Assembly: GCA_017412145.1 (NCBI GenBank)
Contig: JAFPYO010000025.1
Span: 12,378 to 76,377 of the forward strand
Source of the DNA: Prevotella sp.
Lineage (GTDB): Bacteria; Bacteroidota; Bacteroidia; Bacteroidales; Bacteroidaceae
Reading direction: 5' to 3'
Length of the DNA stretch: 64,000 bases
In this document: positions 1 through 49,570 of the stretch, piece by piece
How the letters are laid out: each line of letters begins with the position of its first letter
How positions within the stretch are numbered: position 1 is the stretch's first letter
Notes under the pieces: model-generated
Told to the model about the DNA's origin: nothing
The model's database searches: none
Seen by the model: only the letters and a program-made list of their open reading frames with translations
Translations under genes and position numbers: made by a program

Positions 1-864
1 AAAATCAACGAGTTGAAACAGTTGGCTTTCGACCATATCAACGCGCTCAAGGAGCAACTGGAGAGTGGCGGCGACGAGGCCGACGACATCGACCTGACGC
101 GCACGCCCTACCCGATTCGACTGGGTACGCGCCATCCGCTGACCATCGTCAAGAACGAGATTATCGACATTTTCCAGCGCATGGGCTTCACGCTGGCCGA
201 AGGGCCTGAAATCGACGACGATTTGCACGTCTTTACAAAGCTGAACTTCGCCGCCGACCACCCTGCCCGCGACATGCAGGACACATTTTTCATCGAAACC
301 AACCCCGACGACGTGGCGAAGAACGTCATTCTGCGCTCGCACACGTCGAACGACCAAGCGCACTACATGGAGACGCACCAGCCGCCGATTCGGGTGATTT
401 GCCCGGGTCGCGTCTATCGCAACGAGGCCATTTCCGCCCGTGCCCACTGCTTTTTCCATCAGGTCGAGGGTCTTTACATCGACAAAAACGTCTCGTTCAC
501 CGATTTGAAGCAGGTGTTGCTGTCGTTTGCCCGCGAAATGTTCGGCGCCGACACGAAAATCCGCCTGCGTCCGTCGTATTTCCCCTTCACCGAGCCGAGT
601 GCCGAGATGGACATTTCGTGCCACATCTGCGGCGGCAAGGGCTGCGGCTTCTGCAAACACACGGGCTGGGTCGAGATTCTGGGCTGTGGCATGGTCGATC
701 CGAACGTGCTCGAGGCTTGTGGAATCGACAGCAGCGTATATACGGGCTATGCCTTCGGAATGGGTGTGGAGCGCATCACGAACCTGAAATATCGCGTGGC
801 AGACCTGCGAATGTTTTCGGAGAACGATACACGATTCTTGCGCGAATTTGAAGCGGCGAATTGA
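1..864 (+). CDS. pheS: Phenylalanine--tRNA ligase alpha subunit, 5' end outside window
   Basis: Frame open from base 1; class II aaRS motifs YFPFTEPSAEMDI and AFGMGVERIT; stop TGA 862-864. Confidence 0.9.
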   Translation, partial: KINELKQLAFDHINALKEQLESGGDEADDIDLTRTPYPIRLGTRHPLTIVKNEIIDIFQRMGFTLAEGPEIDDDLHVFTKLNFAADHPARDMQDTFFIETNPDDVAKNVILRSHTSNDQAHYMETHQPPIRVICPGRVYRNEAISARAHCFFHQVEGLYIDKNVSFTDLKQVLLSFAREMFGADTKIRLRPSYFPFTEPSAEMDISCHICGGKGCGFCKHTGWVEILGCGMVDPNVLEACGIDSSVYTGYAFGMGVERITNLKYRVADLRMFSENDTRFLREFEAAN

Positions 865-2174
865 ATTTAAGGGGAGTGAAACGGCTTTTTTATATCATCG
901 TTTTCGGACTTTTGACTGTCGCGATTTCGGCGTTCGCAGAAGAAACCGACTCGCTGGCGAATCACTCGAAAGTGCCTTTCTCACGACATTTCGGTTATAC
1001 GCTGAGCGTTTCGCCGGGTCGCGTCATCGTGATGGATGAATGGCAGAAAAAATGGCAAAAAAACACGAAGACCATCGCGTTTGCCATCGAAGCGAACTAC
1101 GCTGCCTTGCCGCAAGACAACGACGATTTTGCCATCGATTACAATTATCCAACGCTGGATTTCGGCCTGAAATTCAACCTGAACGATGTGACGATGCACC
1201 GCTCGCCCGACGAGGCTTGGGGAATGGCCAAAGAGGTTGATTACGACTCGAAACTGGGCAACATCGCCACGCTTTACGCCACTTTCACCCGTCCGATTTA
1301 CCGAAACAACCGTTGGATGTTCGATTATACGCTCGGAACGGGCATCGGCTACGGCAAACACAAATACAGCCGTGGCAACAACATCGACAACGAACTGACG
1401 GGCTCGCGCTTCCTCATTTATTTCACGGGCGGCCTGCACGCCACCTATCGCTTCGCCGACGACTGGGGAATGATGGGCGGCGTTGAGTTCTACCACCACA
1501 GCAACGGTGCGCTGAACCGTCCGAACAAGGGTGTGAACATCGTCGGGCCAGTCGTGGGACTGCGCTATATGCCGTATTGGAAGGAAATCAGGAGTGAAGG
1601 AGTGAAGGAGTTGGGGAGTAAGGAGGCATTTCAGAAGCGGTTTTACGCCAATTTCACGTTGGGTGTGGGTGGAAAAACACTGAACGAAGACTGGCAACTG
1701 ACGCAATTCCAAACGCCGCCCGATTCGCCCGACTATCGCACGGGACGCTTCCGTTTCTATATGGCCTATTCCGCGCAGGCCGACATTATGTATCGCTATG
1801 CCCGCCGTTGGGCATCGGGCATCGGAGCCGACCTCTTCTACGGCACCTACGCCGACCGCGTCCGCGACATCGAAACCATTCAAAATTCAACATTCAAAAT
1901 TCAACATTCAAAAGTTTCCCCTTGGTCCTTCGGCCTCGCCCTGAAGCATCAAGTCTATTACCACAACCTTTCCGTCGCCATGTCGCTCGGCTACTACCTC
2001 TATCGCCAGATGGGTCGGAACGCGAAGGAAATCGAACAGCCCTACTACGAGCGCATCGGCATCCACTACACCATTCCGTCGCTTCGCAACCTCACCGTCG
2101 GCTTCAACATCAAGGCACACCTCACGAAAGCCGACCTCACCGAACTCGTTGTCAGTTATCCCGTCGATTTATAG
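861..2174 (+). CDS. Outer-membrane acyloxyacyl hydrolase / lipid A deacylase (PagL-like) family protein
   Basis: Signal peptide MNLRGVKRLFYIIVFGLLTVAISAFA; aromatic-rich beta-barrel-like composition; FYHHSNGALN motif resembling PagL-type His/Ser site; start TTG 861 or GTG 876. Confidence 0.45.
   Translation: MNLRGVKRLFYIIVFGLLTVAISAFAEETDSLANHSKVPFSRHFGYTLSVSPGRVIVMDEWQKKWQKNTKTIAFAIEANYAALPQDNDDFAIDYNYPTLDFGLKFNLNDVTMHRSPDEAWGMAKEVDYDSKLGNIATLYATFTRPIYRNNRWMFDYTLGTGIGYGKHKYSRGNNIDNELTGSRFLIYFTGGLHATYRFADDWGMMGGVEFYHHSNGALNRPNKGVNIVGPVVGLRYMPYWKEIRSEGVKELGSKEAFQKRFYANFTLGVGGKTLNEDWQLTQFQTPPDSPDYRTGRFRFYMAYSAQADIMYRYARRWASGIGADLFYGTYADRVRDIETIQNSTFKIQHSKVSPWSFGLALKHQVYYHNLSVAMSLGYYLYRQMGRNAKEIEQPYYERIGIHYTIPSLRNLTVGFNIKAHLTKADLTELVVSYPVDL
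1591..1626. repeat. C-free purine-rich word tract (GGAGTGAAGG family), in frame in CDS
   Basis: ggagtgaaggagtgaaggagttggggagtaaggagg contains no C; 8-nt stutter; encodes SEGVKELGSKE; near-identical copy at 41245-41275. Confidence 0.8.
1877..1913. repeat. Tandem 14-mer CATTCAAAATTCAA (2.6 copies), in frame in CDS
   Basis: G-free stretch 1873-1913; encodes IQNSTFKIQHSK; same word recurs in intergenic 6827-6893. Confidence 0.8.
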
Positions 2175-2269
2175 AATCTTTTTTGTTTAGGCTCGTTAAA
2201 GCGAGGGGCGAAATTGTTAAATAGGAATAAAGAAGCGTGACAAATTGGCAGATTAACAATTTTTGCACC

Positions 2270-2277
2270 TAAATTTG
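2270..2277 (+). promoter_or_regulatory. Bacteroidota sigma-A -7 box (TAnnTTTG) for htrA
   Basis: TAAATTTG about 105 nt upstream of htrA ATG. Confidence 0.4.
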
Positions 2278-2323
2278 CATCCCGAAAATAAACGATGGCG
2301 GAAAAAATCCGTCAATTCAGTTG

Positions 2324-2359
2324 GATTTCGGAAGAAAAATCGATTTCAGAAGAAAAATG
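2324..2359 (+). repeat. Tandem 18-nt direct repeat in htrA leader
   Basis: gatttcggaagaaaaatc / gatttcagaagaaaaatg, 16/18 identical, adjacent, between -7 box and ATG. Confidence 0.6.
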
Positions 2360-2383
2360 TTGAACTTTTAATACGAAAAGACA

Positions 2384-3844
2384 ATGAAAAAGTATCAGAA
2401 ATTGTTGCTGAGCGCCATGTGCGTGGTCGCACTGGGGCTCTCCGCCGGAACATTCATCAAAGTGAATGCCGCAAGCGGCCCTGTGGTCGCAGTTGCAGGA
2501 CAACCCGTCGATTTGACCTATGCAGCCGACAAGGCGTTGCCCGCCGTAGTGCATATTAAATATGTGCAAAACTCGAAGACGCAAACCGTCAGAATGCAAA
2601 GCAATCCGTTTGAAGACTTCTTCAACGACCCGTTCGGATTCTTCGGAACACCGCAGGGCGGCACGCGCGAGCGCCAGATTCAGACCCCGAAGCGCACGGC
2701 TACGGGTTCGGGCGTGATTATTTCGTCCGACGGCTACATCGTCACGAACAACCACGTCGTGGCCGATGCCGACGAACTCACCGTGACGCTCAACGACAAT
2801 CGCGAATTCTCGGCCCGCATCATCGGCACTGACCAGACGACCGACCTCGCCCTCATCAAAATCGACGGCAAGAGCCTGCCCGCCATCGCCATCGCCAACA
2901 GCGACGACCTGAAAGTGGGCGAATGGGTGCTGGCAGTCGGCAATCCGCTCGGACTGAACAACACGGTGACGGCTGGAATCGTGTCGGCAAAGGCTCGCTC
3001 GATTGGTGCCAACGGCGTGGAGTCGTTCATCCAGACCGATGCCGCCATCAACCAAGGCAACTCGGGCGGTGCACTTGTCAATACACGCGGCGAACTCGTC
3101 GGCATCAACGCCATGCTGGCATCGCCCACGGGCTCGAACATCGGCTACGGATTCGCCATCCCCACGACGATTATGAACAAAGTCGTGGCCGACATCAAGG
3201 AATATGGCACCGTGCAGCGTGCGCTGCTCGGCATTCAGGGCGGCGACGTGCTGAACTACATCAACAGCGAGAAAGAGAAAGACAACGAAGTCGATTTAGG
3301 CACAAATGAAGGCGTTTATGTCGCGAAAGTCGAGACCGACGGCGCAGGTGCCGATGCCGGACTCGAAAAGGGCGACGTCATCACCCACATCGACGGCAAG
3401 AAGGTCACGAAGATGAGCGAAATGCAGGAGATTATGTACAACAAGCGCCCGGGCGACAAGGTTTCCATCACCTATCTCCACAACAAGAAGAAAGTGACGA
3501 AAACTGTGACGCTGAAGAACGCGCAGGGCAACACGAAGGTTGTGAAACAGGCCGATATGGACGTGCTCGGAGCCGACGTGCGCCCCATCACCTCGCAGCA
3601 GAAAGAACAGCTCAACATCAGCTACGGACTGGAGGTCATCAAGGTGAACAACGGTAAACTGAAAGACACCGGCATCACCAAGGGATTCATCATCCAAAAA
3701 GTGAACGACGAGGCGATGAAGTCGGTTGAAGACCTGCAAAAAACCGTCAAGGAAACTTCGACTAGCAAAGAGCCCGTGCTGGTGATTCGCGGCCTCTATC
3801 CGACTGGCAAGAAGGCTTACTTCGTGGTCGATCTCGAAAATTAA
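2384..3844 (+). CDS. htrA: Periplasmic serine endoprotease, HtrA/DegP/DegQ family
   Basis: Signal peptide; catalytic triad contexts TNNHVV, TDLALIK, GNSGGALVN; C-terminal PDZ-like region. Confidence 0.9.
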   Translation: MKKYQKLLLSAMCVVALGLSAGTFIKVNAASGPVVAVAGQPVDLTYAADKALPAVVHIKYVQNSKTQTVRMQSNPFEDFFNDPFGFFGTPQGGTRERQIQTPKRTATGSGVIISSDGYIVTNNHVVADADELTVTLNDNREFSARIIGTDQTTDLALIKIDGKSLPAIAIANSDDLKVGEWVLAVGNPLGLNNTVTAGIVSAKARSIGANGVESFIQTDAAINQGNSGGALVNTRGELVGINAMLASPTGSNIGYGFAIPTTIMNKVVADIKEYGTVQRALLGIQGGDVLNYINSEKEKDNEVDLGTNEGVYVAKVETDGAGADAGLEKGDVITHIDGKKVTKMSEMQEIMYNKRPGDKVSITYLHNKKKVTKTVTLKNAQGNTKVVKQADMDVLGADVRPITSQQKEQLNISYGLEVIKVNNGKLKDTGITKGFIIQKVNDEAMKSVEDLQKTVKETSTSKEPVLVIRGLYPTGKKAYFVVDLEN

Positions 3845-4819: not shown

Positions 4820-4864
4820 GTGGAGTGTGGAGTGTGAAGTGAAAAGTGAATAAAAATAATATGA
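4820..4864. repeat. C-free word tract (GGAGTGTGAAGTG family) filling rpoD-downstream spacer
   Basis: gtggagtgtggagtgtgaagtgaaaagtgaataaaaataatatga has no C; shares ggagtgtgaagtg with reverse strand of 19969-20000. Confidence 0.8.
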
Positions 4865-5466
4865 CAAAAATGACAAAAAATCTACTGGCAGCACTGCTGC
4901 TGACGGCGGCGACAATGCTTCCGAGCGAGGCGTTCGGCATCAACAGACCGACGAAAGTCTATATGTTCGGATTCGCCACGTCGTTTAACGATTCGACGGT
5001 GTATCTCACTGATATTCAACAAGTTGATACGGCTTGGATTGACACCAGAACCGATTTCATCTATGGTCGTCAAGACTTCTCGTATCAGTTTGCCGAGCAT
5101 CTTCGCAGCGACGAGAATCCGTATCCGACAGCCCTCGTCATCTTCGCCGAGAAGCGTAAGGACATCGAGAAAAAATACCTGAAACTTAGGAAGCGCTACA
5201 CCACGGCGAAAAAAGGTCGTTTCACGCTCAAAAACATCGACGTGAACACCTTCCGATTCAAAAGTGTCAAGCCCGACAAGCCCGAAGAAACTTACACGAA
5301 GAAACAGTTGAAGGAGGCCATCAAAAAAGAGAAAAACGAGCTTAAACAGAAGCAAAAAGAAGCAAAAAAACTGTTGAAAGCCGACCAAAAAGCCAAGAAA
5401 GAAGCCACGAAAAAGGCAATGGCCGAGGCCAAACAACGGGCAAAAGAACTTAAAAACAAAAAGTAA
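4861..5466 (+). CDS. Secreted hypothetical protein with Lys/Glu-rich C-terminal tail
   Basis: Signal peptide LLAALLLTAATMLPSEAFG; C-terminal KKEKNELKQKQKEAKKLLKADQKAKKEATKK; ATG 4861 or 4870 preferred over GTG 4846; stop overlaps next ATG (TAATG). Confidence 0.6.
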   Translation: MTKMTKNLLAALLLTAATMLPSEAFGINRPTKVYMFGFATSFNDSTVYLTDIQQVDTAWIDTRTDFIYGRQDFSYQFAEHLRSDENPYPTALVIFAEKRKDIEKKYLKLRKRYTTAKKGRFTLKNIDVNTFRFKSVKPDKPEETYTKKQLKEAIKKEKNELKQKQKEAKKLLKADQKAKKEATKKAMAEAKQRAKELKNKK

Positions 5467-6350
5467 TGAGCATCAACGATTTCCGCGTGGCCGAGCACGA
5501 CATCCGAATCATCTTCAAAGACTCGGACAAGAACGGAATGCACCTGCTGCCGTCGTTTGAGCCGTTTCGCGCCAAGAACGACGGGCAGAATCTCTTCTTC
5601 CACCTGACCATCGACGACACGCTGCGCCCCATTCCCAAGGCACAGCGCGAGCGCATCCGCACCTTCGACACGGGCAATGGCGACACGGTGGTCGATCAGA
5701 CGGCCGACGGCGGCTATCAGTACATCATCAAAGACCTGCGCGGCCACGAATGTTGCCTGCTCATCGCCAACAAAGACTTCAGCGAATGCCATTGCGCCCT
5801 TAACGGCTCGTACAATATGCGGAAATTCGGCCTCAACAACGCGCTGATGCTGATTTTCGCCTTCGCTGGCAGCCAACAAGACACGCTGCTCATCCACGCC
5901 TCGCTCGTCAGACAAAACGGCTACGGCTATCCCTTCATCGCCAAAAGCGGAACGGGAAAAAGCACACAAGTGAGTATGTGGCTGCGCCATATTCCAGGCT
6001 GCGACCTGATGAACGACGACAACCCGATTATTCGCATCATCGACGGCGAAGCCTATATTTTCGGCGGTCCGTGGAGCGGAAAAACGCCCTGCTACCGCAA
6101 TGTGAAGGCCAAACTTGGTGCCATCACGCGCATCGACCGAGCCGAAGAAAACAGCATTGAAAAACTGCCGCCTGTCGAAGCCTTTGCCTCGTTCCTGCCG
6201 TCGTGTTCAACGATGAAATGGGACGAAGACATTTTTGAGCGCATCTGCGACACGGTGACGCGCATCATCGAACTGACACCGATTTACACACTGCACTGCC
6301 TACCCAACAAAGAAGCCGCCATCCTATGCAACAAAGCCATCTCAAGGTAA
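5466..6350 (+). CDS. HPr kinase C-terminal-domain-like P-loop protein (HprK-related)
   Basis: LIHASLV...GYGYPFIAKSGTGKSTQ...LMNDDNP matches HprK C-domain pattern (H.s.v...g.G.li.G.SG.GKS....l..DD). Confidence 0.55.
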   Translation: MSINDFRVAEHDIRIIFKDSDKNGMHLLPSFEPFRAKNDGQNLFFHLTIDDTLRPIPKAQRERIRTFDTGNGDTVVDQTADGGYQYIIKDLRGHECCLLIANKDFSECHCALNGSYNMRKFGLNNALMLIFAFAGSQQDTLLIHASLVRQNGYGYPFIAKSGTGKSTQVSMWLRHIPGCDLMNDDNPIIRIIDGEAYIFGGPWSGKTPCYRNVKAKLGAITRIDRAEENSIEKLPPVEAFASFLPSCSTMKWDEDIFERICDTVTRIIELTPIYTLHCLPNKEAAILCNKAISR

Positions 6351-6826: not shown

Positions 6827-6893
6827 CTCAAAATTCAACATCGGCGCAGCCGACAATTCAAAATTCAACCGTCAAAATTCAAAATTCAACAAT
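6827..6893. repeat. ATTCAAAATTCAAC word copies flanking a small hairpin, S24-PqqD spacer
   Basis: ctcaaaattcaaca, hairpin tcggc-gca-gccga (6841-6853), caattcaaaattcaacc, gtcaaaattcaaaattcaac directly before ATG 6894. Confidence 0.8.
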
Positions 6894-9381: not shown

Positions 9382-9408
9382 TTTTTACTTTTTCACCTTT
9401 TGACCTTT

Positions 9409-10320
9409 TCACTTTTTCAACCATTTCCTCGCTTCTTCCACATCCTTCTCACGTGGGGCGGCAGCACGCGGAAACTTCAATTTCGGCAATGCTCGGACAG
9501 TCGCCGAGGTCACTCCGCAATATTTTTCGACAATATCGCCGTACTGCCCTACTCCACGCCCATTGAGCGAGTCGCAAGCCACGTTGTAAACCTTCAGGAA
9601 AGCGTCGATTTGCGTCTTGATGCGGCGGTCTTTCATCGCCTTTTCGCGAAACGCCACCACGCCCAAGCGCAGGTCGGTCGAGTCCGATTTCCAAATGACC
9701 GAATGTTTCAGTTGTCGAGCAGCCGTGGCTTGCGGTTCGGGCAGCCACAGCGCGTCCATTTCGTTGTTTTTGAGCATTTGCAGTCGCAGCGCGATGTCGT
9801 TGATTTGCACACGATAGACCGTCGCCGTCGTTTTCACGCCTTTCAGGGCGCGGTCGGTCAGCAGGTCGGTTGCCGAGAAGCGCGTCATTGCCACCATTTT
9901 GTCGCCCAACTGCCGCGTTTCCTTCAAGCGCGCCGTGCGGTTCGCCACGAGTTGCCACGCCGTGTTGGTCGCCGCTACGTAGTTCAGTGCCGTGCCGCGG
10001 TTGCGCATCCGTTCCGCCCGCACAAGGTCGGTGATGGCACCCTCGACGCTACCGCCCACGAGTGCCGTATCGACGTCCATTTGCGCTTTGAACGGTCGCA
10101 GTCGCACGTCGATTTTCAGCGAGTCGAACCATCCGCGCTCCGCCGCCACGAACATCGGCAGACAGTCGAGCGTCGGCAGCACCGCCACCTTCAACGCCAA
10201 CGAGTCTTGTCGTCGCTGTTCAGCGCGTTCTGCCCGCGTGATTCGTCGCTTTTCCTCGTAGGATTGGCCGCACGACATCAGCCATAAAAGCGCGAAAAAA
10301 AGTCCAAAAATTTTCTTCAT
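9409..10320 (-). CDS. Lipoprotein, ABC-type substrate-binding protein-like (NMT1/TauA-like)
   Basis: Lipobox LLWLMSC; LKVAVLPTLDCLPMFVA and two-lobe SBP-like layout; ATG 10320 (GTG 10323 alternative). Confidence 0.35.
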   Translation of the reverse strand: MKKIFGLFFALLWLMSCGQSYEEKRRITRAERAEQRRQDSLALKVAVLPTLDCLPMFVAAERGWFDSLKIDVRLRPFKAQMDVDTALVGGSVEGAITDLVRAERMRNRGTALNYVAATNTAWQLVANRTARLKETRQLGDKMVAMTRFSATDLLTDRALKGVKTTATVYRVQINDIALRLQMLKNNEMDALWLPEPQATAARQLKHSVIWKSDSTDLRLGVVAFREKAMKDRRIKTQIDAFLKVYNVACDSLNGRGVGQYGDIVEKYCGVTSATVRALPKLKFPRAAAPREKDVEEARKWLKK

Positions 10321-10348
10321 CACTGCAAAAATTCGAAATTCTTGACTG

Positions 10349-10427: not shown

Positions 10428-11834
10428 ATGGTGAAAAAAGACAAGACTATGTTCGTCTGCGAGAATTGCGGACAAGAATCGCCGAAATGGGTTGGCAAAT
10501 GTCCCGCTTGCGGCCAGTGGAACACATTCAAGGAAATCAAGGTGAGCAACGACGCTGGCACGATGGCGGCTCGCTCAGCAGCGCAGTCGGTACGGGCTGG
10601 TGGCATCAGCGCGAGTAAAAACCATCCGCAGTTGCTGCGCGACATCTCTGCGAAGGACGAACCGCGATTTTCGACGGGCGACAGCGAACTCGACCGCGTT
10701 TTGGGCGGTGGACTCGTGCCGGGAAGCATCGTGTTGCTCGGTGGTGAGCCAGGAATCGGAAAAAGTACGCTCACGCTTCAAACCATTCTCGGAATGAACG
10801 ACCGAAAAGTGCTCTACGTGAGTGGCGAGGAAAGCGCCCATCAGTTGAAAATGCGGGCAGAGCGACTCGGCAACACCCAAAGTCCAACACCCAACACCTT
10901 ATTGATTCTCACGGAAACCTCGCTTGAAACCATTTTCGAGCATATTAAAGAGGTGCAGCCCGAACTCGTCGTCATCGACTCGATTCAGACCATCGCCACC
11001 GAAACCGCCGACAGTTCCGCCGGTAGCATCGTGCAGGTACGCGAATGTGCCTCTGCCCTCCTCCGTTTCGCGAAATCGAGCGGCGTACCCGTCATTCTCA
11101 TCGGCCACATCAACAAAGAAGGGTCGCTTGCAGGCCCGAAAATCCTTGAGCACATTGTCGATACGGTCATCCAGTTCGAGGGCGACCAGCAACATCTCTA
11201 CCGCATTCTCCGCGCCACGAAAAACCGCTTCGGCTCCACCAGCGAACTCGGCATCTACGAAATGCGACACGACGGTCTGCGACAGGTTTCGAACCCCTCG
11301 GAACTGCTCCTGAACAGCGACCACGAGGGACTTTCAGGCGTGGCCATCAGTGCCGCCGTAGAGGGTGTGCGCCCGTTCCTGCTGGAAACGCAGGCGCTCG
11401 TATCGTCGGCAGCCTACGGCACGCCGCAACGCTCGGCCACAGGCTTCGACCAGCGTCGCCTGAACATGCTTTTGGCCGTGTTGGAGAAGCGCGTCGGCTT
11501 CAAACTGATGCAAAAAGACGTGTTTTTGAACATTGCCGGAGGCCTTCGCGTCACCGACATGGCGATGGATTTGAGCGTCATCGCCGCCGTGCTGTCGTCG
11601 AATGTCGATACGCCCATCGAACAGGGTTGGTGCATGGCTGGCGAGGTTGGACTCTCCGGCGAGGTGCGCCCCGTGGCCCGCATCGAACAAAGAATCGGCG
11701 AAGCCGAGAAACTGGGCTTCACCGATATCATCATTCCCCGCCAAAACATGCAGGGATTAGACACTCAAAAATTCACGATTAAACTTCATCCCGTGCGCAA
11801 GGTCGAGGAGGCTCTGCGATTGCTTTTCGGCTAA
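10428..11834 (+). CDS. radA: DNA repair protein RadA/Sms
   Basis: Zn finger CENCGQESPKWVGKCPACGQWNTF, Walker A GGEPGIGKST, KNRFG motif, Lon-like C-terminal domain; ATG 10428 downstream of the -7 box. Confidence 0.9.
   Translation: MVKKDKTMFVCENCGQESPKWVGKCPACGQWNTFKEIKVSNDAGTMAARSAAQSVRAGGISASKNHPQLLRDISAKDEPRFSTGDSELDRVLGGGLVPGSIVLLGGEPGIGKSTLTLQTILGMNDRKVLYVSGEESAHQLKMRAERLGNTQSPTPNTLLILTETSLETIFEHIKEVQPELVVIDSIQTIATETADSSAGSIVQVRECASALLRFAKSSGVPVILIGHINKEGSLAGPKILEHIVDTVIQFEGDQQHLYRILRATKNRFGSTSELGIYEMRHDGLRQVSNPSELLLNSDHEGLSGVAISAAVEGVRPFLLETQALVSSAAYGTPQRSATGFDQRRLNMLLAVLEKRVGFKLMQKDVFLNIAGGLRVTDMAMDLSVIAAVLSSNVDTPIEQGWCMAGEVGLSGEVRPVARIEQRIGEAEKLGFTDIIIPRQNMQGLDTQKFTIKLHPVRKVEEALRLLFG
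10871..10898. repeat. CAACACC word tract, in frame in radA
   Basis: caacacccaaagtccaacacccaacacc encodes NTQSPTPNT in the linker after MRAERLG. Confidence 0.7.
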
Positions 11835-15055: not shown

Positions 15056-15084
15056 CTGAATTTACAATTTGACGATTTTACAAT

Positions 15085-15711
15085 TTAGATATTGAGACCT
15101 GAGAAACACATCATTGCCATCGCCATCAGGCCAACAGTAATAAAGACGATGCCGAGTCCCTGAAGCGGTTTGGGCACGTCGCTGTACTGCATTTTCTCGC
15201 GAATCGCACCGAGCGCAACAATGGCGAGCGTCCAGCCGATGCCCGAGCCGAAGCCATAGACGATGGCGTCCCAAATCGAGGTAATCGCCTGCGAGTTCGA
15301 CGGATCCATCAGAATGCGCTGCTGCATGAAGAGCGACGCACCCATGATGGCGCAGTTCACGGCGATGAGCGGCAGGAAAATACCGAGTGCGGCGTAGAGT
15401 GAGGGCGAGTATTTCTCGACCGTCATCTCGACGAGTTGCACCATGCCGGCAATCACGGCGATGAAGAGTATGAACGACAGGTACGACAAATCGACTCCTT
15501 CAACCAGACAGCCATCGCCCAGCACCTTGGTTTGCAACAGATAGTTCACGGGAACGGTCACGGTGAGCACGAATGTCACGGCGAGGCCGAGGCCCAGCGA
15601 GGTTTTCACGGTCTTCGACACGGCAAGGTAGGAACACATGCCCAGGAAGAAGGCGAAAATCATATTGTCCACGAAAATGGACCTGAACAACAAACTAATA
15701 GAATGTTCCAT
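15085..15711 (-). CDS. nqrE: Na+-NQR subunit E
   Basis: 208-aa polytopic membrane protein in conserved nqr order. Confidence 0.9.
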
Positions 15712-15858
15712 AATTTTTTCTTTTTTTGTAGTTATGTAGTTAAGAAGTTATCGCTACGCTCGTCCTTCGGACAGTAGTTAAGCCATTACTCTTTTCCCTT
15801 ATGTCAGCCACCAGAACATTCGGCTTAACTTCTTAACTTCTCTAACTTCCCTAACTTC
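15712..15858 (-). other. 147-bp structured insert between nqrD and nqrE (MITE-like or RNA element)
   Basis: 13-bp perfect inverted arms agttaagaagtta (15738-15750) / taacttcttaact (15826-15838); inner hairpin gtcc-ttc-ggac; G-free TAACTTC stutter 15824-15858. Confidence 0.6.
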
Positions 15859-16482
15859 TCATTTTTCTTTATAAAAGTAAGCACGATGTACCCAAATCAC
15901 ACAACCGACGAGAATCAGCGCCATGGCAGGCATCGTCATCATACCGTTGTTGGCGTAGCCGAAGTCGTAGAAACTCTGCGGCAGAATCTGGAAGCCTAGC
16001 AGCGAGCCACGTCCGAAGAATTCGCGGGCTCCACCGACAATGACGAGAATCATCGCGTAGCCGAGTCCGTTGCCCACACCGTCGAGGAACGACGGCCAGG
16101 GCTTGTTCTGCATGGCGAAAGCCTCCAATCGACCCATCAGAATACAGTTGGTGATGATCAGACCGACATAGACCGAGAGTTCCACGCTCACGTCGTAGGC
16201 GAAGGCCTTGAGAATCTGCGAAACGATGGTCACGAGAGCAGCCACAACGACCAGTTGCACCACGATGCGGATGCGGTTGGGAATGGTGTTGCGGATCACA
16301 GAGATAATCACGTTGGCAAAGGCGGTGATTACCGTCACGGCGAGTCCCATCACGATGGCAGGCTTCAACTGCGCAGTGACGGCGAGTGCCGAGCAGATGC
16401 CCAATACTTGTCCGAGTATCGGGTGGTCGAGGTTCAGCGGATTGGTGAAAACCTCTTTATTTTGTTTACTGAAAAGTGCCAT
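15859..16482 (-). CDS. nqrD: Na+-NQR subunit D
   Basis: 207-aa polytopic membrane protein, conserved position. Confidence 0.9.
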   Translation of the reverse strand: MALFSKQNKEVFTNPLNLDHPILGQVLGICSALAVTAQLKPAIVMGLAVTVITAFANVIISVIRNTIPNRIRIVVQLVVVAALVTIVSQILKAFAYDVSVELSVYVGLIITNCILMGRLEAFAMQNKPWPSFLDGVGNGLGYAMILVIVGGAREFFGRGSLLGFQILPQSFYDFGYANNGMMTMPAMALILVGCVIWVHRAYFYKEK

Positions 16483-16523
16483 TTCAATTTACTATTTGAC
16501 GATTTACAATTTTACAATTTTGA

Positions 16524-18307: not shown

Positions 18308-18314
18308 TTTTTAT

Positions 18315-18349
18315 TGAACATTGAATATTGAACATTGAACATTAAGCAT
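18315..18349. repeat. Five tandem TGAACAT-type heptamers at nqrA/nqrB junction
   Basis: tgaacat tgaatat tgaacat tgaacat taagcat; spans the nqrA stop codon and the spacer. Confidence 0.8.
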
Positions 18350-19691
18350 TCTCTTTTCTGAGTATATTCAGTCCCTCGCGCACGATTTTCTGCAATTCGA
18401 GTTTCGACGAATCGACGAACTCGGCCAGCGCGAAGTCTTCGGGGCTCACTTCGTAGATGCCCAACTGCTCCTGACGGTCGATGTCGCCTGCGATAATCGC
18501 CTTGATGAGATACTCGCCGTAGATGTCCATCGGCAACACGCGGTCGTATTCGCCACTCATGATGATATGGCGCTCGCCGCCCTTCACGCGGGCATCCAAA
18601 CGATACTTTTTCTTCGGGAAAAGCCATGAGAAGTAGCTGCGACTCGTCGAGAACTGGTCGAATCGCGGCAAAATCCAACCGAGCATCTCGGCTGCGTCGT
18701 CGCCTTCGGGAATCACGCTCACCACCGACGTGTGAGCGCCGAGATAGCCGTCCATCGTGTCGCGGCTGCCCGTCAGCGGATTTCCATTGATGATACGGAC
18801 ATTCTTGCCCTCGTCAATCTGGCCGTCGAGAATCGCCTTGAGCGGCGTTCCGACGAGTGCATCGACGTAGGCCGGCGTTTTCACTTCGCTGCCGGCAACG
18901 GCGACGGTGCGCGTCAAATCGACACGACCTTCGTTGAACAGCCGACCGAAGAAAATCACTGCCGTCGGCTCAACCATCCAAACGATTTCGCCCTTGTTCA
19001 CGGGGTCGAGGTGGTTCACCTGCACACCCACGTTGCCTGCCGGACACGGACCGTCGAACACGTTGACTTCGACATCTTTCGCATTCAGCAGCGCGTCGGC
19101 GGTCTGCTTTGCCCCCACACCGAGATAGGTCTTCGCCATCTTCGACAATGCCGTCAAGCCCGTCTGCCAATCGTTTTCCTGACCTGCCAGTTCAAACTCG
19201 AAGTCGCCGGCCAACGGCTTGTCGCGCAGTGCCGAGACGAAAATCGCCTTCGGCGTGTCCGACGGATTCGCCACCACAGCGTAGGGCAACTGGTTGATGT
19301 AGCCGAACAGTCCGGCCTCCAACAACGCATTCTTCACGTCCTCGCCCGAAAGCGAAGCCACGTCTTTCGTGCCGAACGCCGCAAACTCCTGTTGCTCGTC
19401 GGCCTTCACCTTCACGCAAAGCACCTTTCGACGCTCACCGCGCTCCACTGCCGTCACCACCCCACTCACGGGCGAAGCAAACTTCACCTCGGGGCAGTTT
19501 TTATCGACAAAAAGCGCCTCGCCAGCCTTGACACGGTCGTTTTCGCGCACGACAAGCTTCGGCGTGATGCCCGTGAAGTCGTCGGGAACGAGCGCAAACT
19601 CGCCGCTCTTCCTGATGCTCAACTTCCGCTTCTCGGCCTTGCCTTCCAACTGAATGTCCAAGCCTTTGCGTAACTTAATAACTTTTTTCAT
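18342..19691 (-). CDS. nqrA: Na+-NQR subunit A
   Basis: 449 aa, first gene of nqrABCDEF order. Confidence 0.9.
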   Translation of the reverse strand: MKKVIKLRKGLDIQLEGKAEKRKLSIRKSGEFALVPDDFTGITPKLVVRENDRVKAGEALFVDKNCPEVKFASPVSGVVTAVERGERRKVLCVKVKADEQQEFAAFGTKDVASLSGEDVKNALLEAGLFGYINQLPYAVVANPSDTPKAIFVSALRDKPLAGDFEFELAGQENDWQTGLTALSKMAKTYLGVGAKQTADALLNAKDVEVNVFDGPCPAGNVGVQVNHLDPVNKGEIVWMVEPTAVIFFGRLFNEGRVDLTRTVAVAGSEVKTPAYVDALVGTPLKAILDGQIDEGKNVRIINGNPLTGSRDTMDGYLGAHTSVVSVIPEGDDAAEMLGWILPRFDQFSTSRSYFSWLFPKKKYRLDARVKGGERHIIMSGEYDRVLPMDIYGEYLIKAIIAGDIDRQEQLGIYEVSPEDFALAEFVDSSKLELQKIVREGLNILRKENA

Positions 19692-19968: not shown

Positions 19969-20000
19969 ACTCACTCCACACTTCACACTCCTCACTTCAC
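19969..20000. repeat. GGAGTGTGAAGTG-family word tract (reverse strand), at 3' end of LRR gene
   Basis: actcactccacacttcacactcctcacttcac has no G; reverse complement shares ggagtgtgaagtg with 4820-4864. Confidence 0.8.
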
Positions 20001-21791
20001 GATTTTTCTTCTTTTATGGATATAAAGTCCCTTCTTCGTCGGCTCACCGCTCAACTTCACGCCATCAATGGAATAATAACTGTCATTTGTCATTTTTCCA
20101 TTGTCATTGAGCGAAGCGTCAATTCCTGTCGGAACTTCTCCTGTATATTCCTGCCAACCATTGGTAGTTTTGCAATACACCGTCCAGCCTTTTGCATTTG
20201 CCGCCTCTACGTGCTCCGCTGTGCAGACGTTCTGTTCGTTCTCGTCGGTGAAGTCCAAAGCATAGAGTGCGCCTTTTCGCGGATTGGTTTCCTCTGTGAG
20301 CATCAAACCTTTCGCCTCGTTTCCGCTCAGGTCGGGCAAGGCACCAATAAGCGAAGTCATAGCCTTGTCAGAAATCTGGTTTATCTGACAATAGATTGTT
20401 GTCAGAGCAGTGAAATATTCGATGCCAGAGAGGTCTGTGATTTTTCCGTCTGAAACATCAAGTTTTATCGTCGCAACAATGAGACCTTCGTTGATTTCAC
20501 TGCCCTCGGCAAGCCCTAATTCCTTTGCAATCGCATTGCGGAAGTTGTCATCGGGGAAGTTTTCTTCATCCAAAAGAATTGCCTCGTCGCTGCCCTCGTA
20601 TTCAACGTAGCCAATCCAGTTTATTCCATCATAATTATAATCATACACCGTCCAGCCCTTTTCTTTGGCAATTACCACCTGTGCCTTTGTGCAAACGTTT
20701 CCTTCGTTCGTGTCTTTCGTGTTAATGACATGGAATTCACCATTTTCCACCGTCGGCAGACTTCCTACGAGTGCATCCATCGCCTCGCCCTTGATTTGGT
20801 TGCCGTAGCACTCCAACCCTCTCAGCGCGGTGCATCCCGACACATTGAGTGAAGTCAGTTGGTTGCCGCTGCAGTACAACACACCCAGTGCGGTGCATCC
20901 CGACACGTCAAGCGAGGTCAGATGGTTGTCGTAGTAGACCAAATCTTCCAGCGCGGTGCATCCCGACGCGTCTAAAGAGGCCAGCCAGTTGCTGTGGCAG
21001 GACAACGATGTCAGCGCGGTACACCCCGACACGTCTAAAGAGGTCAGTTGGTTGTGGTGGCACTCCAACCGTGTCAGTGCGTTGCATCCGGACACATTGA
21101 GCGAGGTCAATTGGTTTTCGCGGCAGTCCAAATCTTCCAGCGCGGTGCATCCCGAAACATCGAGCGAGGACAGTTGGTTGCCGCTGCAGTACAACACACC
21201 CAGTGCGGTGTTCTTCGACACGTCTAAAGAGGACAGTTGGTTGCCGCTGCAGTACAAATCCCACAGCGCGGTATTTTTCGACACATCGAGCGAGGACAGT
21301 TGGTTGCCGCCGCAGTACAAATCCCACAGCGCGGTGTTCTTCGACACATCCAAAGAAGTCAGCTGGTTGCCGGAGCAGCTCAAACTTGTCAGCGCGGTGT
21401 TCTTCGACACATCAAGCGAGGTCAGCTGGTTGCCGCTGCAGTCCAAACGTGTCAGTTCGATAAGATGTTCAATACCTGTTAAGTCACTAACATTTTTGTT
21501 GTATAGATTCAAATAATTATAATCACCACCAAAAATGCTATAATTTCGTCCATCGCGGAAGTTACCTTTACTATCATAATAACCATTGTTGTAGAGTATA
21601 TCGCCCTCATGTAATTCTCTTATTAAGCGATATACTCCATACTCATCGTAACCGTATATGGAGACTTGTTCCATAAGTGCAGCACGAAAATTCGGGTCAG
21701 GAAAGTTCGTTTCGTCAAATATCACCTGCGCATTTGCAATCGTCACCATGGCCACGAGGGCAAAAAGTAGTGTAAAAAATCTTTTTTTCAT
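19992..21791 (-). CDS. Leucine-rich-repeat surface protein with T9SS C-terminal sorting domain
   Basis: Signal peptide; about 10.5 copies of 22-aa LRR (LTSLDVSKNTAL.DLYCSGNQ); C-terminus YYSIDGVKLSGEPTKKGLYIHKRRKIVK typical of Por/T9SS CTD. Confidence 0.8.
   Translation of the reverse strand: MKKRFFTLLFALVAMVTIANAQVIFDETNFPDPNFRAALMEQVSIYGYDEYGVYRLIRELHEGDILYNNGYYDSKGNFRDGRNYSIFGGDYNYLNLYNKNVSDLTGIEHLIELTRLDCSGNQLTSLDVSKNTALTSLSCSGNQLTSLDVSKNTALWDLYCGGNQLSSLDVSKNTALWDLYCSGNQLSSLDVSKNTALGVLYCSGNQLSSLDVSGCTALEDLDCRENQLTSLNVSGCNALTRLECHHNQLTSLDVSGCTALTSLSCHSNWLASLDASGCTALEDLVYYDNHLTSLDVSGCTALGVLYCSGNQLTSLNVSGCTALRGLECYGNQIKGEAMDALVGSLPTVENGEFHVINTKDTNEGNVCTKAQVVIAKEKGWTVYDYNYDGINWIGYVEYEGSDEAILLDEENFPDDNFRNAIAKELGLAEGSEINEGLIVATIKLDVSDGKITDLSGIEYFTALTTIYCQINQISDKAMTSLIGALPDLSGNEAKGLMLTEETNPRKGALYALDFTDENEQNVCTAEHVEAANAKGWTVYCKTTNGWQEYTGEVPTGIDASLNDNGKMTNDSYYSIDGVKLSGEPTKKGLYIHKRRKIVK
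20793..21485 (-). repeat. Tandem 66-bp coding repeats (LRR units)
   Basis: Residues about 103-333 of the LRR protein; several adjacent units nearly identical at DNA level. Confidence 0.85.
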
Positions 21792-22146
21792 AAAGTTTGT
21801 TGTTTAATAGTTATTGCATATTGTTTATTGTCTGTTGAGTCCAAAAACGGTTCGAGTGGAGACAATAAAAAAACGTGGACTCATTACTTCGTCTACGCTT
21901 CCTCCAGGTATCGCCAAACACCATGCAACCATATCCGAGTAAAAGCCCACGCCATTGCTGACGTGAGCATCCGAGCTTTTTACTCTTGGTCGCTTTCTTG
22001 ATATTTTTTGGCGAAATTCGGAGAAAGCAAGAACTAAAGCGGACGCTTCTTATCTATATGTCTTTTTGCTTTGTTTTATGTCATAGGCAATCTATTTAGT
22101 TGAGAATTGATAGTTGATAGTTGAGAATTATGATTGGTTGTTGATC

Positions 22147-22864: not shown

Positions 22865-22925
22865 CGAATATTTTTTGAAAAAAGAAAAAATCCTTTTAAT
22901 TTTTGGTTTTTCGTTCACTTAATAG

Positions 22926-22933
22926 TATCTTTG
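22926..22933 (+). promoter_or_regulatory. -7 box (TATCTTTG) for tamB-like gene
   Basis: TATCTTTG upstream of candidate starts TTG 22942 / GTG 22951. Confidence 0.45.
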
Positions 22934-22950
22934 CAGACGATTTGAAAAAA

Positions 22951-25900
22951 GTGAGGAAAATCTCCAACATCGCGCTGTGGACGGTCATCGGACTGCTCAT
23001 CGCGGTGGTTGTACTGTTGCGCGTGCCGACGGTACAGCATTTTATTGGCTCGAAAACGGCGGACGCGCTGTCGGAAAAACTGGGCACGGAAGTGAGCGTG
23101 GGGCGCGTGGATTTGGGCTTTTTGAACCGAATCACCATCGACGACGTGAACATTCGCGACCAACAGGGCGAACCACTGCTGAAAGCGTCGCGACTGTCGG
23201 CAAAAATCGACTATCTGGCGCTGCTGAAAGGGAAAATCGTGGTGACGTCGGCGCAGTTGTTCGGCATGAACGCGAACCTCTACCAACAAACGGCGGACGC
23301 GCCACACAATTTCCAGTTCGCCCTCGACTCGCTGGCCTCGAAAGAGCCGTCGGACGACTCACCGCTCGACCTTTGCATCCACTCGCTCATCGTTCGACGC
23401 GGCAGCGTGGCGTACCACAAACGCTACGTGGCACCCGTTTCGGGCGAATTTTCACCTGCCCACATCGAGGTGAGCGACATCAGTGCACACGCGATTCTGA
23501 ACGCGCTCAAAGACGACTCGCTGAATGTGAACCTAAAAAAACTGACATTCAACGAAAAATCGGGCTTGCGCGTCAAGAATTTAAGCCTTAAAACCATTGC
23601 CAACCGCGAGGCGGCGCAACTCAGCGATTTCGCCTTGACGACAGCGGAAAGTGACGTGAAAATCAGCGAACTGAATGCCACCTATCAACATCGGAACGAC
23701 ACGCTCGACCTCGCTTCTCTTCAATTTAACGGAAAACTTGAACCATCGCGCATAACTCTCTGGGAATTAGAACCTTTTACACGTTTCGGACACGATATTC
23801 AAACACCATTTCTCGTAACTTCTTCGTTCAGTGGAACGGCCTCATCGGTCAAGGTGAACAGCCTCGACATTCGTTCTTCTGACAACCAATTTTTGTTCTC
23901 GGGAAACGGCTCTTTTTCGTCGAAATCGGGGCAGACGCAATGGCTTGCCGACGTCCATCGTTTGAACGCCAGCGAGCAGAGTGTCAAGACACTCACGAAA
24001 GGCATCGAACTGCCCGAGGAAGTGCATCGATTAGGAAATATTTCGTTTGAGGGAAAGGCTGGCGGAACGGCGCAAAACCTCACGGCGACAGGCTCGCTGC
24101 AGACCGACGCAGGCAACGCGAAGTTGAATTTCGTGAAAAACGGGCGGAATTTCAATGGAAATCTGGAAAGCGACGGCTTGAACCTGCAACGCATCCTCGA
24201 CAACGACGAACTCGGCGAACTGGCGACGCACATCGCCGTCGATGGGCAACTTCCAACGGGAACTTCGCCCCTCGCGCTCAAGGCGAAAGGCACGGTTTCG
24301 CGCTTCGATTTCAAGAATTATTCGTACAAAAACATCGAACTCGACGGCAACTTCCAAAACGGCATTTTCGATGGAAAAATCGACGTCGATGACCCCAACG
24401 CACAACTTTCTGCCGTGGGAAAAATCGCGACGAAGAATTTCGTGGCTGACCTCAACGCCAAGGTCCGCCAACTCAAGCCGTCGGCACTCCATCTGAGCGA
24501 CGATTGGGGCGACGCGAACTTCCAGTTCGACCTGTCGGCCAACATCGCCGGAAAACAACTTAACAACGCCGTCGGGGAGGTCAATATCGAGAATTTTGAA
24601 ATGGTGTCGAGCGACCGCCAATTTGCTTTCGACAGGCTGAATCTGAGTGCCACGAACACCCACGACGGCCACAATTTGAGCCTCGAGAGCGATTTTGCCG
24701 ATGTCAAGGTCGAAGGACAATACGACTACCAGACGCTCGCCCAAAGTTTCACGAACCTTGTGAGCAGTAAACTCCCGACCTTGCCCGGACTGCCGAAATA
24801 TAGCCCATCGACCCGCAACAATTTCCGCATCAGCGCAAACATCACCGACAGCGAATGGCTTGACGACCTCTTCGGAATTCCGCTCACACTGCGCCAACCG
24901 ATGCGCGTGGAGGGAATCATCGACGACCGCAACCACCAGCTCGACCTCGAAGCCCGTCTGCCCCACTTCATCTACAACGACAGCGAGTATCGCGATGCCA
25001 TTTTGAACATCACCACCCCCGACGACACACTGCGCACACACGCCGCCATCAGTCGTATTTCCGACAATGGAAACCAGTTGCGCCTGACACTCGAAGCCGA
25101 CGCCGCCGACAACCACCTCGTCACCGCGCTCCACTTCGAAAACGACGCCCTCCACACGATGAAAGGCGTGCTCAACGCCGACGCGCAATTCTTCCGAACA
25201 GCCGAGGGAAAAGATGCCGCACACGTCGATATCCACTCGTCAGACATCACGATTGGCAACACAGTGTGGACAGTCGAGCCGGGCACGATTGTCTATAGCA
25301 AAAACGACCTCACCATCGACCATTTGGCCATTTCCAACGACCGCCAGCACCTCATCATCGACGGTCGGGGCAGTGAAAATGCTGCCGATTCGCTCATCGC
25401 CGAGTTGCAAGACATCGATGTAGAGTACATTCTCGACCTGGTCGATTTCGATGCCGTGAAATTCAGCGGAAAGGCGACGGGAAAAGCCTTTGTCACCCAT
25501 CTTTTCGGAACACCCGAGGCCGCTGCGAAACTCGACGTGGCCGAATTCCGCTTTGAAGACGGACGAATGGGAACGCTCAGCGCAACCGCCCGACTCAACA
25601 ACGAGGCGAAGCAAATCGACATCAACGCCATCGCTAACGACACGATTGCCCCACAAGCGCCAAACGTCCTGCAAATGGGAATGTTCCCCGTGAATACGCT
25701 TGTCAACGGCTATGTTTCGCCACAGCGCAACGAACTCGAACTTTTTATCAGGCCGAACAAGGCTCGCGGCGAATTTCTCGAGAGTTTTTGCGGCAGTTTT
25801 ATGCGCGATGTCGATTTACAAGTGACTGGAAATCTGCGACTTTACGGTGCGCTCGACGACCTCAACCTCACGGGCGGAGTGGCTGCAAGCGGGTCGGTCG

Positions 25901-33872: not shown

Positions 33873-33895
33873 TTTTTATGTTGAATTGTATAATT

Positions 33896-33940
33896 GTTGA
33901 TTTGTTGAATGTTGATTTGTTGAATGTTGATTTGTTTAAT
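33896..33940. repeat. Three tandem 15-mers GTTGATTTGTTGAAT within a 78-nt C-free tract
   Basis: 33871-33948 contains no C on plus strand (G-free leader on mRNA strand of gene starting at 33872). Confidence 0.85.
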
Positions 33941-33982
33941 TGATATTTCTCCTCCCCAGTCGGGGGGAGGTTGGGAGGGACT

Positions 33983-49545: not shown

Positions 49546-49570
49546 TGGAATTAGAGAGTAAGGAGTTGAG
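49541..49570. repeat. C-free word tract related to GGAGTGAAGG family, between convergent genes
   Basis: tttaatggaattagagagtaaggagttgag; shares ggaattag.gagt with 41261-41275 and gagtaaggag with 1615-1625. Confidence 0.7.

Follow-up and report, generated by a model that had tools for sequence, protein, structure and literature searches.

Rickettsia palindromic elements (RPEs), which are ~100-150 bp long, palindromic (hairpin-forming), fairly fixed in length and similar to miniature inverted-repeat transposable elements (MITEs), bring short repeated DNA in frame into unrelated genes, where it gives lineage-specific peptides at tolerated surface positions and leaves the protein functional. Direct repeats of small units have been documented as TAACTGA repeats in Beggiatoaceae, Cyanobacteria and Bacteroidetes (MacGregor 2015, PMC4679880) and as GGGNATC repeats in Xanthomonas and Nostoc (Rehm 2015, PMC4692102). 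In Borg elements, every repeat unit internal to an open reading frame (ORF) is divisible by three (Schoelmerich et al. 2023, PMC9879509), and phase-variable simple-sequence contingency loci are known from Haemophilus, Neisseria and Campylobacter (PMC2651432, PMC8437040, PMC3315296). Here we analyse a 64-kb stretch of a Prevotella sp. contig (JAFPYO010000025.1), referred to as the window, in which the genes of a PagL-like outer-membrane protein and of a GH3 beta-glucosidase-like enzyme have a 27-nt sequence in common. The window comes from a rumen-type Prevotella, and it is likely that both enzymes carry, in frame in permissive surface loops, members of a dispersed and fast-evolving octanucleotide family, (AAGGAGTK)n.

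The two copies, AGTGAAGGAGTGAAGGAGTTGGGGAGT at 1593-1619 and AGTGAAGGAGTGAAGGAATTAGGGAGT at 41247-41273, both on the forward strand, are identical at 25 of 27 positions and encode SEGVKELGS in frame, the two differences (GAG/GAA and TTG/TTA) being synonymous. All this had been claimed in the initial annotation and was borne out by the window search and the ORFs, as was the placement of both copies in C-free tracts, which span 1590-1626 (37 nt) and 41236-41279 (44 nt). No third match to the 27-mer was found in the window at up to three mismatches, and 100 dinucleotide-preserving shuffles gave zero matches at that threshold. The shared module is a stretch of an 8-nt tandem array, (AAGGAGTK)n, and not a discrete 27-nt element. 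In the 8-nt register, the PagL site reads AGGAGTGA AGGAGTGA AGGAGTTG GGGAGTAA GGAGG and the GH3 site CAGAAGTT GTGGAGTG AAGGAGTG AAGGAATT AGGGAGTG ATGAACTT CGGGATTT; Tandem Repeats Finder (TRF) reported the latter with period 8/16 at 41245-41287 and with period 8 at 41245-41275. Array length ranges from 30 to 195 nt across genes and differs among alleles, the ends being the points where the repeat register stops, and the array junctions that were checked had neither target-site duplications nor constant ends. Folding of the DNA of both modules with their flanks, on both strands, gave minimum free energies of 0 to -0.7 kcal/mol with z-scores of +0.3 to +0.8 and no stable hairpin. Inverted repeats were absent from the PagL site and amounted to a weak 11-nt pair at the GH3 site.

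The peptide is dictated by the repeat itself. Three 8-nt units make 24 nt, or eight codons, and an ORF through the array reads the unit in all three phases successively. When the K base falls in codon position 2, a G would make TGA; in position 1, a T would make TAA; in position 3 it is unconstrained. Two of the three sense frames of the array are thus closed by TGA or TAA, and any sense ORF through it must therefore read (KELRSEGV)n; the 27-mer likewise has one open sense frame, the remaining two meeting TGA. Because this reading is forced, the common frame, the common peptide and the synonymous differences carry little weight as evidence of copying or of selection on the peptide. The stop-free family consensus, AGTGAAGGAGTKAAGGAGTTAAGGAGT, differs by 2 bases from each window 27-mer, the same number by which the copies differ from each other. 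A common donor or an exchange between the two window sites is hinted at by the rare variant AGG->GGG: both copies have it, and among 43 metagenome matches its one occurrence is in the GH3 orthologue.

The PagL-like protein was modelled by AlphaFold2 (AF2) as a beta-barrel with a mean predicted local distance difference test (pLDDT) score of 86.8. In this model, SEGVKELGS (residues 245-253) lies between strands 224-236 and 260-272, with pLDDT down to 67. Orthologues of at most ~68% identity have a short unrelated loop, e.g., ENRATNIIRKP, while closer relatives have array-type loops in many forms; at the DNA level, every such loop consists of either (AAGGAGTK)n or (AGGAGTTC)n. Seven loop alleles were found among PagL proteins that are 95-98% identical outside the loop. 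The loop DNA of one relative (L014) is GAGGAGTTAAGGAGTGAAGGAGTTAAGAAGTTAAGAAGTAAGAGG, that of another (L018) holds 63 nt of AAGGAGTK array, and that of a third (L020) is enlarged to ~150 nt of the sister unit AGGAGTTC, which encodes RSSGVQG repeats. The L018 loop has the non-consensus string TTAAGTAATGA in common with the GH3 array of L019. Pairwise PagL identities describe a star-like species population and are therefore ambiguous as to whether the PagL copy of the window is ancestral or newly converted. A second array of the same gene has a unit matching that of the intergenic array at 6855-6889, and pLDDT is 73 at the corresponding residues 341-350. The closest relatives of the PagL and GH3 proteins are from uncultured Prevotella/Prevotellaceae, including the rumen metagenome-assembled genome (MAG) RUG12193.

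In GH3, relatives of at most 80% identity have an ordinary KLADAVRKGMVSEEYVNRA-type helix at the position of the array, which is carried by the close clade; the outgroups L021 and L022, read as DNA, have normal base composition there. Among the relatives, two separate 8-residue (24-nt) indels (P0123, P0127) were observed along with several substituted versions. The AF2 model places SEGVKELGS (residues 376-384) at a helix-loop-helix junction with pLDDT ~65, and all three repeat tracts of the protein in low-confidence loops or helix junctions; the model being modest (mean pLDDT 67), this mapping is indicative only. At loop 1 (40304-40371 and relatives), there are two allele types, EIREEKGSERGVKGKRR with an 11-nt period and TIQESRSKGVKEV with the 8-nt period GGAGTAAA. 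The sister strain L016 has a different array, (GGAGTAAA)n, in the same place, and in a second sister contig (95% identical, 18.6 kb) the only large indels are in this loop, where the 11-nt-period array gives way to an 8-nt-period one. The allele types do not track overall identity, which suggests allelic recombination. At loop 3, other lineages have arrays of other units, or no array. Orthologue alignment thus identified the segment in both proteins as a lineage-specific insertion or replacement, with ordinary unrelated loops in distant orthologues, and the predicted structures fit the surface-loop position that the initial annotation had raised as a check.

Related copies beyond the window, expected if the module is part of a family, were found. 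A scan of one genome per species for the 21-mer GGAGTGAAGGARTTRGGGAGT gave 12 loci, against ~1 expected by chance (a rough estimate), and 39 loci came from metagenomes, scanned with a pattern that covers the stop-free consensus. One of the genome loci is the GH3 orthologue, and the others are non-coding arrays in Prevotellaceae MAGs, Cyanobacteria, Cytophagales, Saprospiraceae and one Acidobacterium. About half of the metagenome loci are intergenic arrays; the remaining ones hold a pristine in-frame array reading RSEGVKELRSEG inside unrelated proteins. The metagenome scan thereby added ~15 unrelated proteins, and ~16 protein families carry the array in frame. In the sense direction, it was found in a DsbD-like protein, a pseudouridine synthase, RimO (TRAM domain), a HAD hydrolase, MnmE, a GerE-type regulator, an FAA hydrolase-family protein, AroC (chorismate synthase), GlmS (five periods), an HU-domain protein and Rho, as well as at the N-terminus of a putative ATP-grasp-like protein that was called by reading the sequence and not by Pfam. 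A DEAD-box helicase has the array in frame in the antisense direction, and a THUMP-like protein has it so twice; these arrays read as peptides that resemble HSFTPSLL. The hosts are mostly cytoplasmic housekeeping enzymes. Compared with solved homologues, the GlmS array is a ~35-residue insertion at the end of the glutaminase domain and the AroC array makes a loop longer by 6 residues. The Rho cluster is named Paludibacteraceae, and the repeat family is therefore not confined to Prevotellaceae. The arrays of the same genes recur with both flanks intact in independent assemblies (JGI, ENA, NCBI MAGs and Logan). Periods of 7-8 nt dominate over 493 kb of related loci, with dozens of different unit sequences. 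A query of (RSEGVKEL)5 against a database of 5.8 billion proteins returned only spurious ORFs of 30-65 aa on non-coding arrays, by a method that is blind to short inserts in long proteins.

By phylum, the 21-mer loci (L001-L012) are all from Bacteroidota or Cyanobacteria, plus the one Acidobacterium. Bacteroidota and Cyanobacteria make little use of Shine-Dalgarno pairing, and the AAGGAGTK unit contains the Shine-Dalgarno core AAGGAG. Such a unit may be tolerated only because Bacteroidota initiate without this pairing. Several non-coding loci have features of their own. The Prevotellaceae MAG L006 has (AAGGAGTT)n satellites of 72-402 nt (551-762, 2900-2971, 5184-5585) with regular GAGATTTTTTC / GAGAATATT spacers, lying between genes that resemble, from their translations and without Pfam, a defence ATPase, an HNH protein and another ATPase. 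In L029 (637-750), an AAGGAGTK array starts 13 nt past the 3' end of a tRNA-Ala(ggc) gene. Some non-coding arrays (L042 ~629-830, L054, L007 353-450, L008) are followed after 60-100 nt by their own reverse complement, in a hairpin- or MITE-like arrangement.

The behaviour of the arrays is best followed among near-identical alleles. Members of a HAD hydrolase cluster (identity of at least 90%) differ in their C-terminal array, which runs to 1, 2 or 4 periods, and the protein is 215 aa long with one period, 223 aa with two and 247 aa in P0285, which has four periods and an N-terminal array. The variants L051, P0290 and P0294 have out-of-frame unit numbers and stop at a TGA inside the array; L051 differs from L031 by +32 nt. 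Array copy number thus changes by whole units, 24-nt steps keeping the frame and others shifting it and truncating the protein. At the N-terminal site of the same hydrolase, the empty allele has 30 nt of ordinary DNA (EAAMPEHPEY) and the filled allele a 54-nt array (HEGLKELRSEGVKEEDEL) between near-identical flanks. The Rho cluster (637-672 aa) has ~2 to 7 periods of KELKNEGV type in its main array; some of its alleles have a pristine array (GEGVKELRSEGVKE) at a second site, in place of a degenerate purine tract (GERNKVKGEIE). In MnmE, the array allele is LRSEGVKELRSEG, and an 82%-identical orthologue has GVTGDG there. The arrays are lineage-specific and replace ordinary loop-coding DNA. RimO goes further: in genes that are >90% identical (L062 7338-7367, L053 ~1800-1860), one of three unrelated cassettes occupies the loop, which is bounded by CTGATA and a conserved glycine codon, namely an AAGGAGTK array, a (TGGTCGTT)-type array or a third with a ACAGAGTACAGACCG repeat.

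Compared with the described systems, the arrays are closest to the cyanobacterial short tandemly repeated repetitive (STRR) sequences and to the TAACTGA and GGGNATC repeats, which are likewise dispersed through the genome as head-to-tail direct repeats of a 7-8-nt unit, two to tens of copies long. Those repeats are mostly intergenic and often a few bases upstream of start codons, as in the window; they are present or absent between close relatives and occasionally enter ORFs at the protein periphery, and for them, too, the mechanism of spreading is not known. In contrast, the AAGGAGTK unit has a Shine-Dalgarno core and its hosts are rumen Bacteroidales. Many conserved housekeeping enzymes carry it in frame in mid-sequence, with a 24-nt copy-number series and with filled and empty alleles, whereas in the cited papers ORF cases are rare and near protein ends (PMC4679880, PMC4692102). 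The AAGGAGTK arrays have the features of long-unit simple-sequence repeats, i.e., direct repeats of 7-8 nt, dispersed loci often upstream of starts, and polymorphism in unit number. The resemblance to RPEs put forward in the initial annotation holds for the outcome: the array is in frame in ~16 unrelated families, is absent from distant orthologues and lies in loops, in low-confidence segments or in insertions relative to solved homologues. The analogy fails in structure, since there is no palindrome, no fixed end and no target-site duplication; the AAGGAGTK array is tandem, variable in copy number and without defined ends.

Borg repeats, too, are rapidly evolving and recent and are of shared character in intergenic and intra-ORF positions; they form new low-complexity, probably disordered segments (PMC9879509). 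The arrays likewise create new protein segments, which may be of the same kind, with lower model confidence at the arrays and seven loop alleles in PagL. They differ from Borg repeats in that the unit has 8 nt (in other arrays of the window, 7 or 11) and the hosts are cellular Bacteroidales chromosomes. As the unit is not divisible by three, translation passes through all three of its phases, and the peptide repeats after as many residues as the unit has nucleotides. With contingency loci, the arrays have in common a non-triplet intra-ORF unit whose slippage shifts the frame, as in the truncated HAD variants. Contingency loci belong to surface or restriction-modification genes, whereas here the hosts are housekeeping proteins, with arrays in mid-protein loops and with the frame preserved in nearly every allele. 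We see no sign of adaptive on/off switching among these sequences; the in-frame upkeep and the housekeeping hosts argue against a contingency role. A full-text literature search gave no match to the repeat strings or the peptide, and searches on Prevotella tandem or simple-sequence repeats turned up no account of the AAGGAGTK family. In the literature searched, the unit and its widespread in-frame colonisation of Bacteroidales housekeeping enzymes are undescribed.

A mechanism may be proposed in which units are gained and lost by slipped-strand mispairing. Loops as large as these repeat units escape mismatch repair. Other arrays of the genome would act as templates from which new arrays are seeded and degenerate ones made homogeneous again, either through microhomology-mediated template switching or through ectopic gene conversion, and selection would spare only those versions in tolerant loops that are in frame, free of stops and hydrophilic. 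On this view, the window copies match at 25 of 27 positions as members of one family and, probably, also through a common donor or exchange between sites. Copying is suggested by the same unit in many non-repetitive contexts, by the replacement-type events in the HAD hydrolase and Rho, by the shared AGG->GGG and by the TTAAGTAATGA string of PagL and GH3. The earlier idea of a short element copied in frame into coding DNA survives in so far as the segment is lineage-specific, recurs in unrelated genes and in non-coding DNA and has the rare AGG->GGG in both copies; the discrete element itself has given way to an 8-nt array of variable length. Several points weigh against this account. No seeding event was seen, nor any donor array whose flanks match. 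In coding DNA that is not repetitive, a pristine 8-nt array cannot start by slippage alone, since intermediates of a single unit throw the gene out of frame. Length differences of 9 nt, which is no multiple of 8, also occur (PagL of the window versus L013; the second Rho site). The three RimO cassettes in >90% identical genes suggest that rewriting is more active than slippage and drift; these cassettes and the 9-nt differences are left unaccounted for by the proposed mechanism. The additional examples were all retrieved by searching for the AAGGAGTK unit, and the dominance of this unit is therefore an ascertainment effect. Most metagenome contigs carry no taxonomy, and the figures are loci, not arrays per genome.

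The exchange between the two window sites may have been more specific. It is a minority possibility, though one to be kept in sight, that the 27-mers owe their identity, beyond family membership, to a short tract of ectopic gene conversion that joined the PagL and GH3 arrays, either in this strain or repeatedly in its lineage. The window PagL allele is nested among 95-98% identical alleles that are without the 9 nt GAAGGAGTG and have ATG for TTG, and both differences bring the window nearer to GH3. The AGG->GGG of both copies is missing from 42 of the 43 other family members, the sister contig Ga0310690_10000392 combines an identical GH3 27-mer (L025) with a different PagL loop (L013), and the PagL and GH3 arrays of other strains (L018 and L019) share another non-consensus string. 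However, the distant PagL relatives L014, L018 and P0019 already read RS[E/N/S]GVKEL there, so this state may be ancestral or recombined in, and GGG is present also in PagL loops of relatives that have no SEGV. The flanks of the 27-mer differ between the genes, which limits the tract to at most ~29 nt, and the PagL loop differs from that of L013 at several more positions. Somewhat less likely still, an active, hitherto undescribed process may write or copy blocks of 7-8-nt repeats in rumen Bacteroidales, overwriting ordinary sequence in 5' leaders and in loops of essential proteins, of which the sites in the HAD hydrolase, MnmE and RimO would be examples; it would be a non-palindromic counterpart of RPEs and an ongoing source of loop sequence. 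That the blocks are mobile or written by a dedicated enzyme, a transposase-, integrase- or reverse-transcriptase/primase-like "repeat writer" of which the in-frame loop cases are the survivors, we regard as improbable. An identical pristine block of ~36-40 nt with sharp boundaries in more than 12 unrelated genes, filled and empty alleles with near-identical flanks in which ordinary sequence is replaced and not duplicated, the three cassettes of the near-identical RimO genes, entire intergenic arrays present or absent between strains at 94% identity and the predominance of 7-8-nt periods over 493 kb would all fit such a writer. Yet conserved ends, inverted repeats, target-site duplications and fixed length are missing, dozens of unit sequences occur, and no associated gene was seen at the loci examined. 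Moreover, the copy-number series runs in exact unit multiples, which is the outcome of slippage, and comparable hepta- and octamer arrays are found in unrelated phyla (PMC4679880).

A functional peptide, in which SEGVKELGS or RSEGVKEL would be a binding or sorting motif under selection in envelope enzymes, is very improbable, although both window differences are synonymous and the peptide recurs in many proteins. Its translation is imposed by stop-codon avoidance in the 8-nt repeat, the hosts are mostly cytoplasmic and not of the envelope, the same DNA abounds in non-coding arrays and is also read antisense as HSFTPSLL, and the loops are modelled with lower confidence than their flanks. The seven alleles among 95-98% identical PagL proteins and the freely variable copy number speak in the same sense. 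The initial annotation had offered a selected peptide module as its alternative; the hypervariability of near-identical alleles, the identical non-coding arrays and the antisense in-frame arrays contradict it. The sequence is of low complexity and purine-rich, as a chance likeness or an assembly artefact would have it, but the shuffles gave 0 matches in 100 and the same gene is found with the same array and intact flanks in independent JGI, ENA, NCBI MAG and Logan assemblies, which leaves this explanation a negligible probability. Diversity-generating retroelements, CRISPR-like integration and phase variation were entertained as ideas only, and nothing in the data points to them.

The window is itself rich in such arrays (Table 1). 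TRF gave 26 rows of period 7-8, compared with 3.2 in shuffles (maximum 6), i.e., about eight-fold enrichment. Intergenic repeats make up the majority. Seven arrays are in coding DNA, two in PagL, three in GH3, one in a TamB-like gene and one in a RadA-like gene, and a TPNT-type peptide is found in three unrelated proteins (GH3 loop 3, TamB-like and RadA-like). The SEGVKELGS pair is therefore one case of a general phenomenon. The non-coding stretches at 4820-4864, 19969-20000 and 49541-49570, which had been listed as related copies of the module, match the 8-nt register at 50-63% and belong only to the same general kind of repeat. The array at 15826-15860 has a mixed 8/9-nt period and a 57% match in strict 8-nt phase.

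Table 1. Host genes, arrays and array-like stretches of the window (positions within the 64-kb stretch).
Feature	Positions	Strand	Description
Host gene 1	861-2174	+	PagL-like acyloxyacyl hydrolase, 437 aa, Pfam PagL PF09411; outer-membrane beta-barrel
PagL array	1581-1626	+	(AAGGAGTK)n in frame, core 1590-1619, encodes KEIRSEGVKELGSKEA; TRF period 8, 2.8 copies, 100% match (1590-1611)
Second PagL array	1877-1913	+	In frame, (CATTCAAAATTCAA)2.6, 7/14-nt period, G-free, encodes TIQNSTFKIQHSK
Non-coding array	4820-4864	+	7-nt (GTGGAGT / GTGAAGT)n, ~20 nt upstream of start codon 4861; TRF unit GTGGAGT
RadA-like gene array	10871-10898	+	(CAACACC)n in frame, encodes GNTQSPTPNT
Non-coding array	15826-15860	-	(GAGAAGTTA / AAGAAGTTA)n; unit AAGAAGTT one base off AAGGAGTT
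Array	19969-20000	-	(GTGAAGT / GTGGAGT)n, 7/14-nt period, overlaps 3' end of gene 19992-21791; TRF unit CACTCCA
TamB-like gene array	26316-26343	+	(CACCCAA)4 in frame in gene 22903-27456, encodes ITQHPTPNTQ
Host gene 2	40122-42575	+	GH3 beta-glucosidase-like, 817 aa; GH3 N and C domains, Fn3-like
GH3 loop 1 array	40318-40368	+	In frame, 11-nt-period purine (AAGGGAAGTGA)n, encodes EIREEKGSERGVKGKRR; AF2 pLDDT <50 at residues 75-78
GH3 array	41235-41290	+	~7 8-nt units in frame, partly decayed; encodes QKLWSEGVKELGSDELRDL
GH3 loop 3 array	41632-41664	+	In frame (CACCCAA)n heptanucleotide, encodes SPNTNHLTPNT; AF2 pLDDT <50 at residues 505-511
Intergenic purine-rich stretch	49541-49570	+	GGAATTAGAGAGTAAGGAGTTGAG; 63% match to 8-nt register; TRF: no array

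Comparison with the sister contig L013 (Ga0310690_10000392), 94% identical over 12 kb, gave eight gaps relative to the window, two of them alignment ends and five in short-period arrays. The five comprise 9 nt in the PagL loop, an entire intergenic array (36 nt, 4813), another array (35 nt, 6804), 18 nt at 9386 and a 23-nt duplication at 10320. The array at 4820-4864 is missing from L013 and present in L014.

Nine arrays of the window are followed by a start codon after 1-20 nt (4820-4841, 6855-6889, 9382-9427, 15059-15087, 15727-15751, 16481-16520, 18313-18350, 21795-21831 and 33878-33940). Their units differ (GTGGAGT, AATTCAA, GGTGAAAA, ATTGTAAA and others), and nearly every intergenic 7-8-nt array is so placed, as MacGregor described for TAACTGA repeats of Beggiatoaceae and some Bacteroidetes. 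This placement may be related to leaders that are independent of Shine-Dalgarno pairing. Some further differences between strains were also observed. The 23-nt tandem duplication relative to L013, at 10320-10342, is intergenic and upstream of the RadA-like gene, and at 11839 L013 has a 48-nt insertion, absent from the window, that reads by eye as a hairpin. At 33881-33983, corresponding to 611-3832 of the 95% identical L016, the latter has a 3.2-kb gene for the large subunit of carbamoyl-phosphate synthase; the window has there a (TGTTGAWT)n array (33878-33940) and a GC-rich hairpin (CTCCTCCCCAGTCGGGGGGAGG), and no carB was found within the window. The longer tandem repeats at 20796-21447, of 63/189 nt (10.3 and 3.4 copies) in the reverse-strand gene 19992-21791, are the leucine-rich repeats of a 599-aa leucine-rich repeat protein.

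For annotation, identical peptides in unrelated proteins can stem from a reading-frame constraint on a repeat and not from a shared functional motif, and some caution is due. The arrays also bear on annotation and pangenomes through spurious small ORFs, protein clusters split by length and truncation by frameshift, and Bacteroidales pipelines should recognise them. With filled and empty alleles and copy-number series in >90% identical genes, the family offers a testable system for the origin and spread of the hepta- and octanucleotide arrays of Cyanobacteria, Beggiatoaceae and Bacteroidota. For the organisms themselves, it means that one non-triplet DNA repeat can give the same new peptide to many unrelated conserved enzymes, and that the loops that bear the arrays become hypervariable among the strains of a group abundant in gut and rumen.

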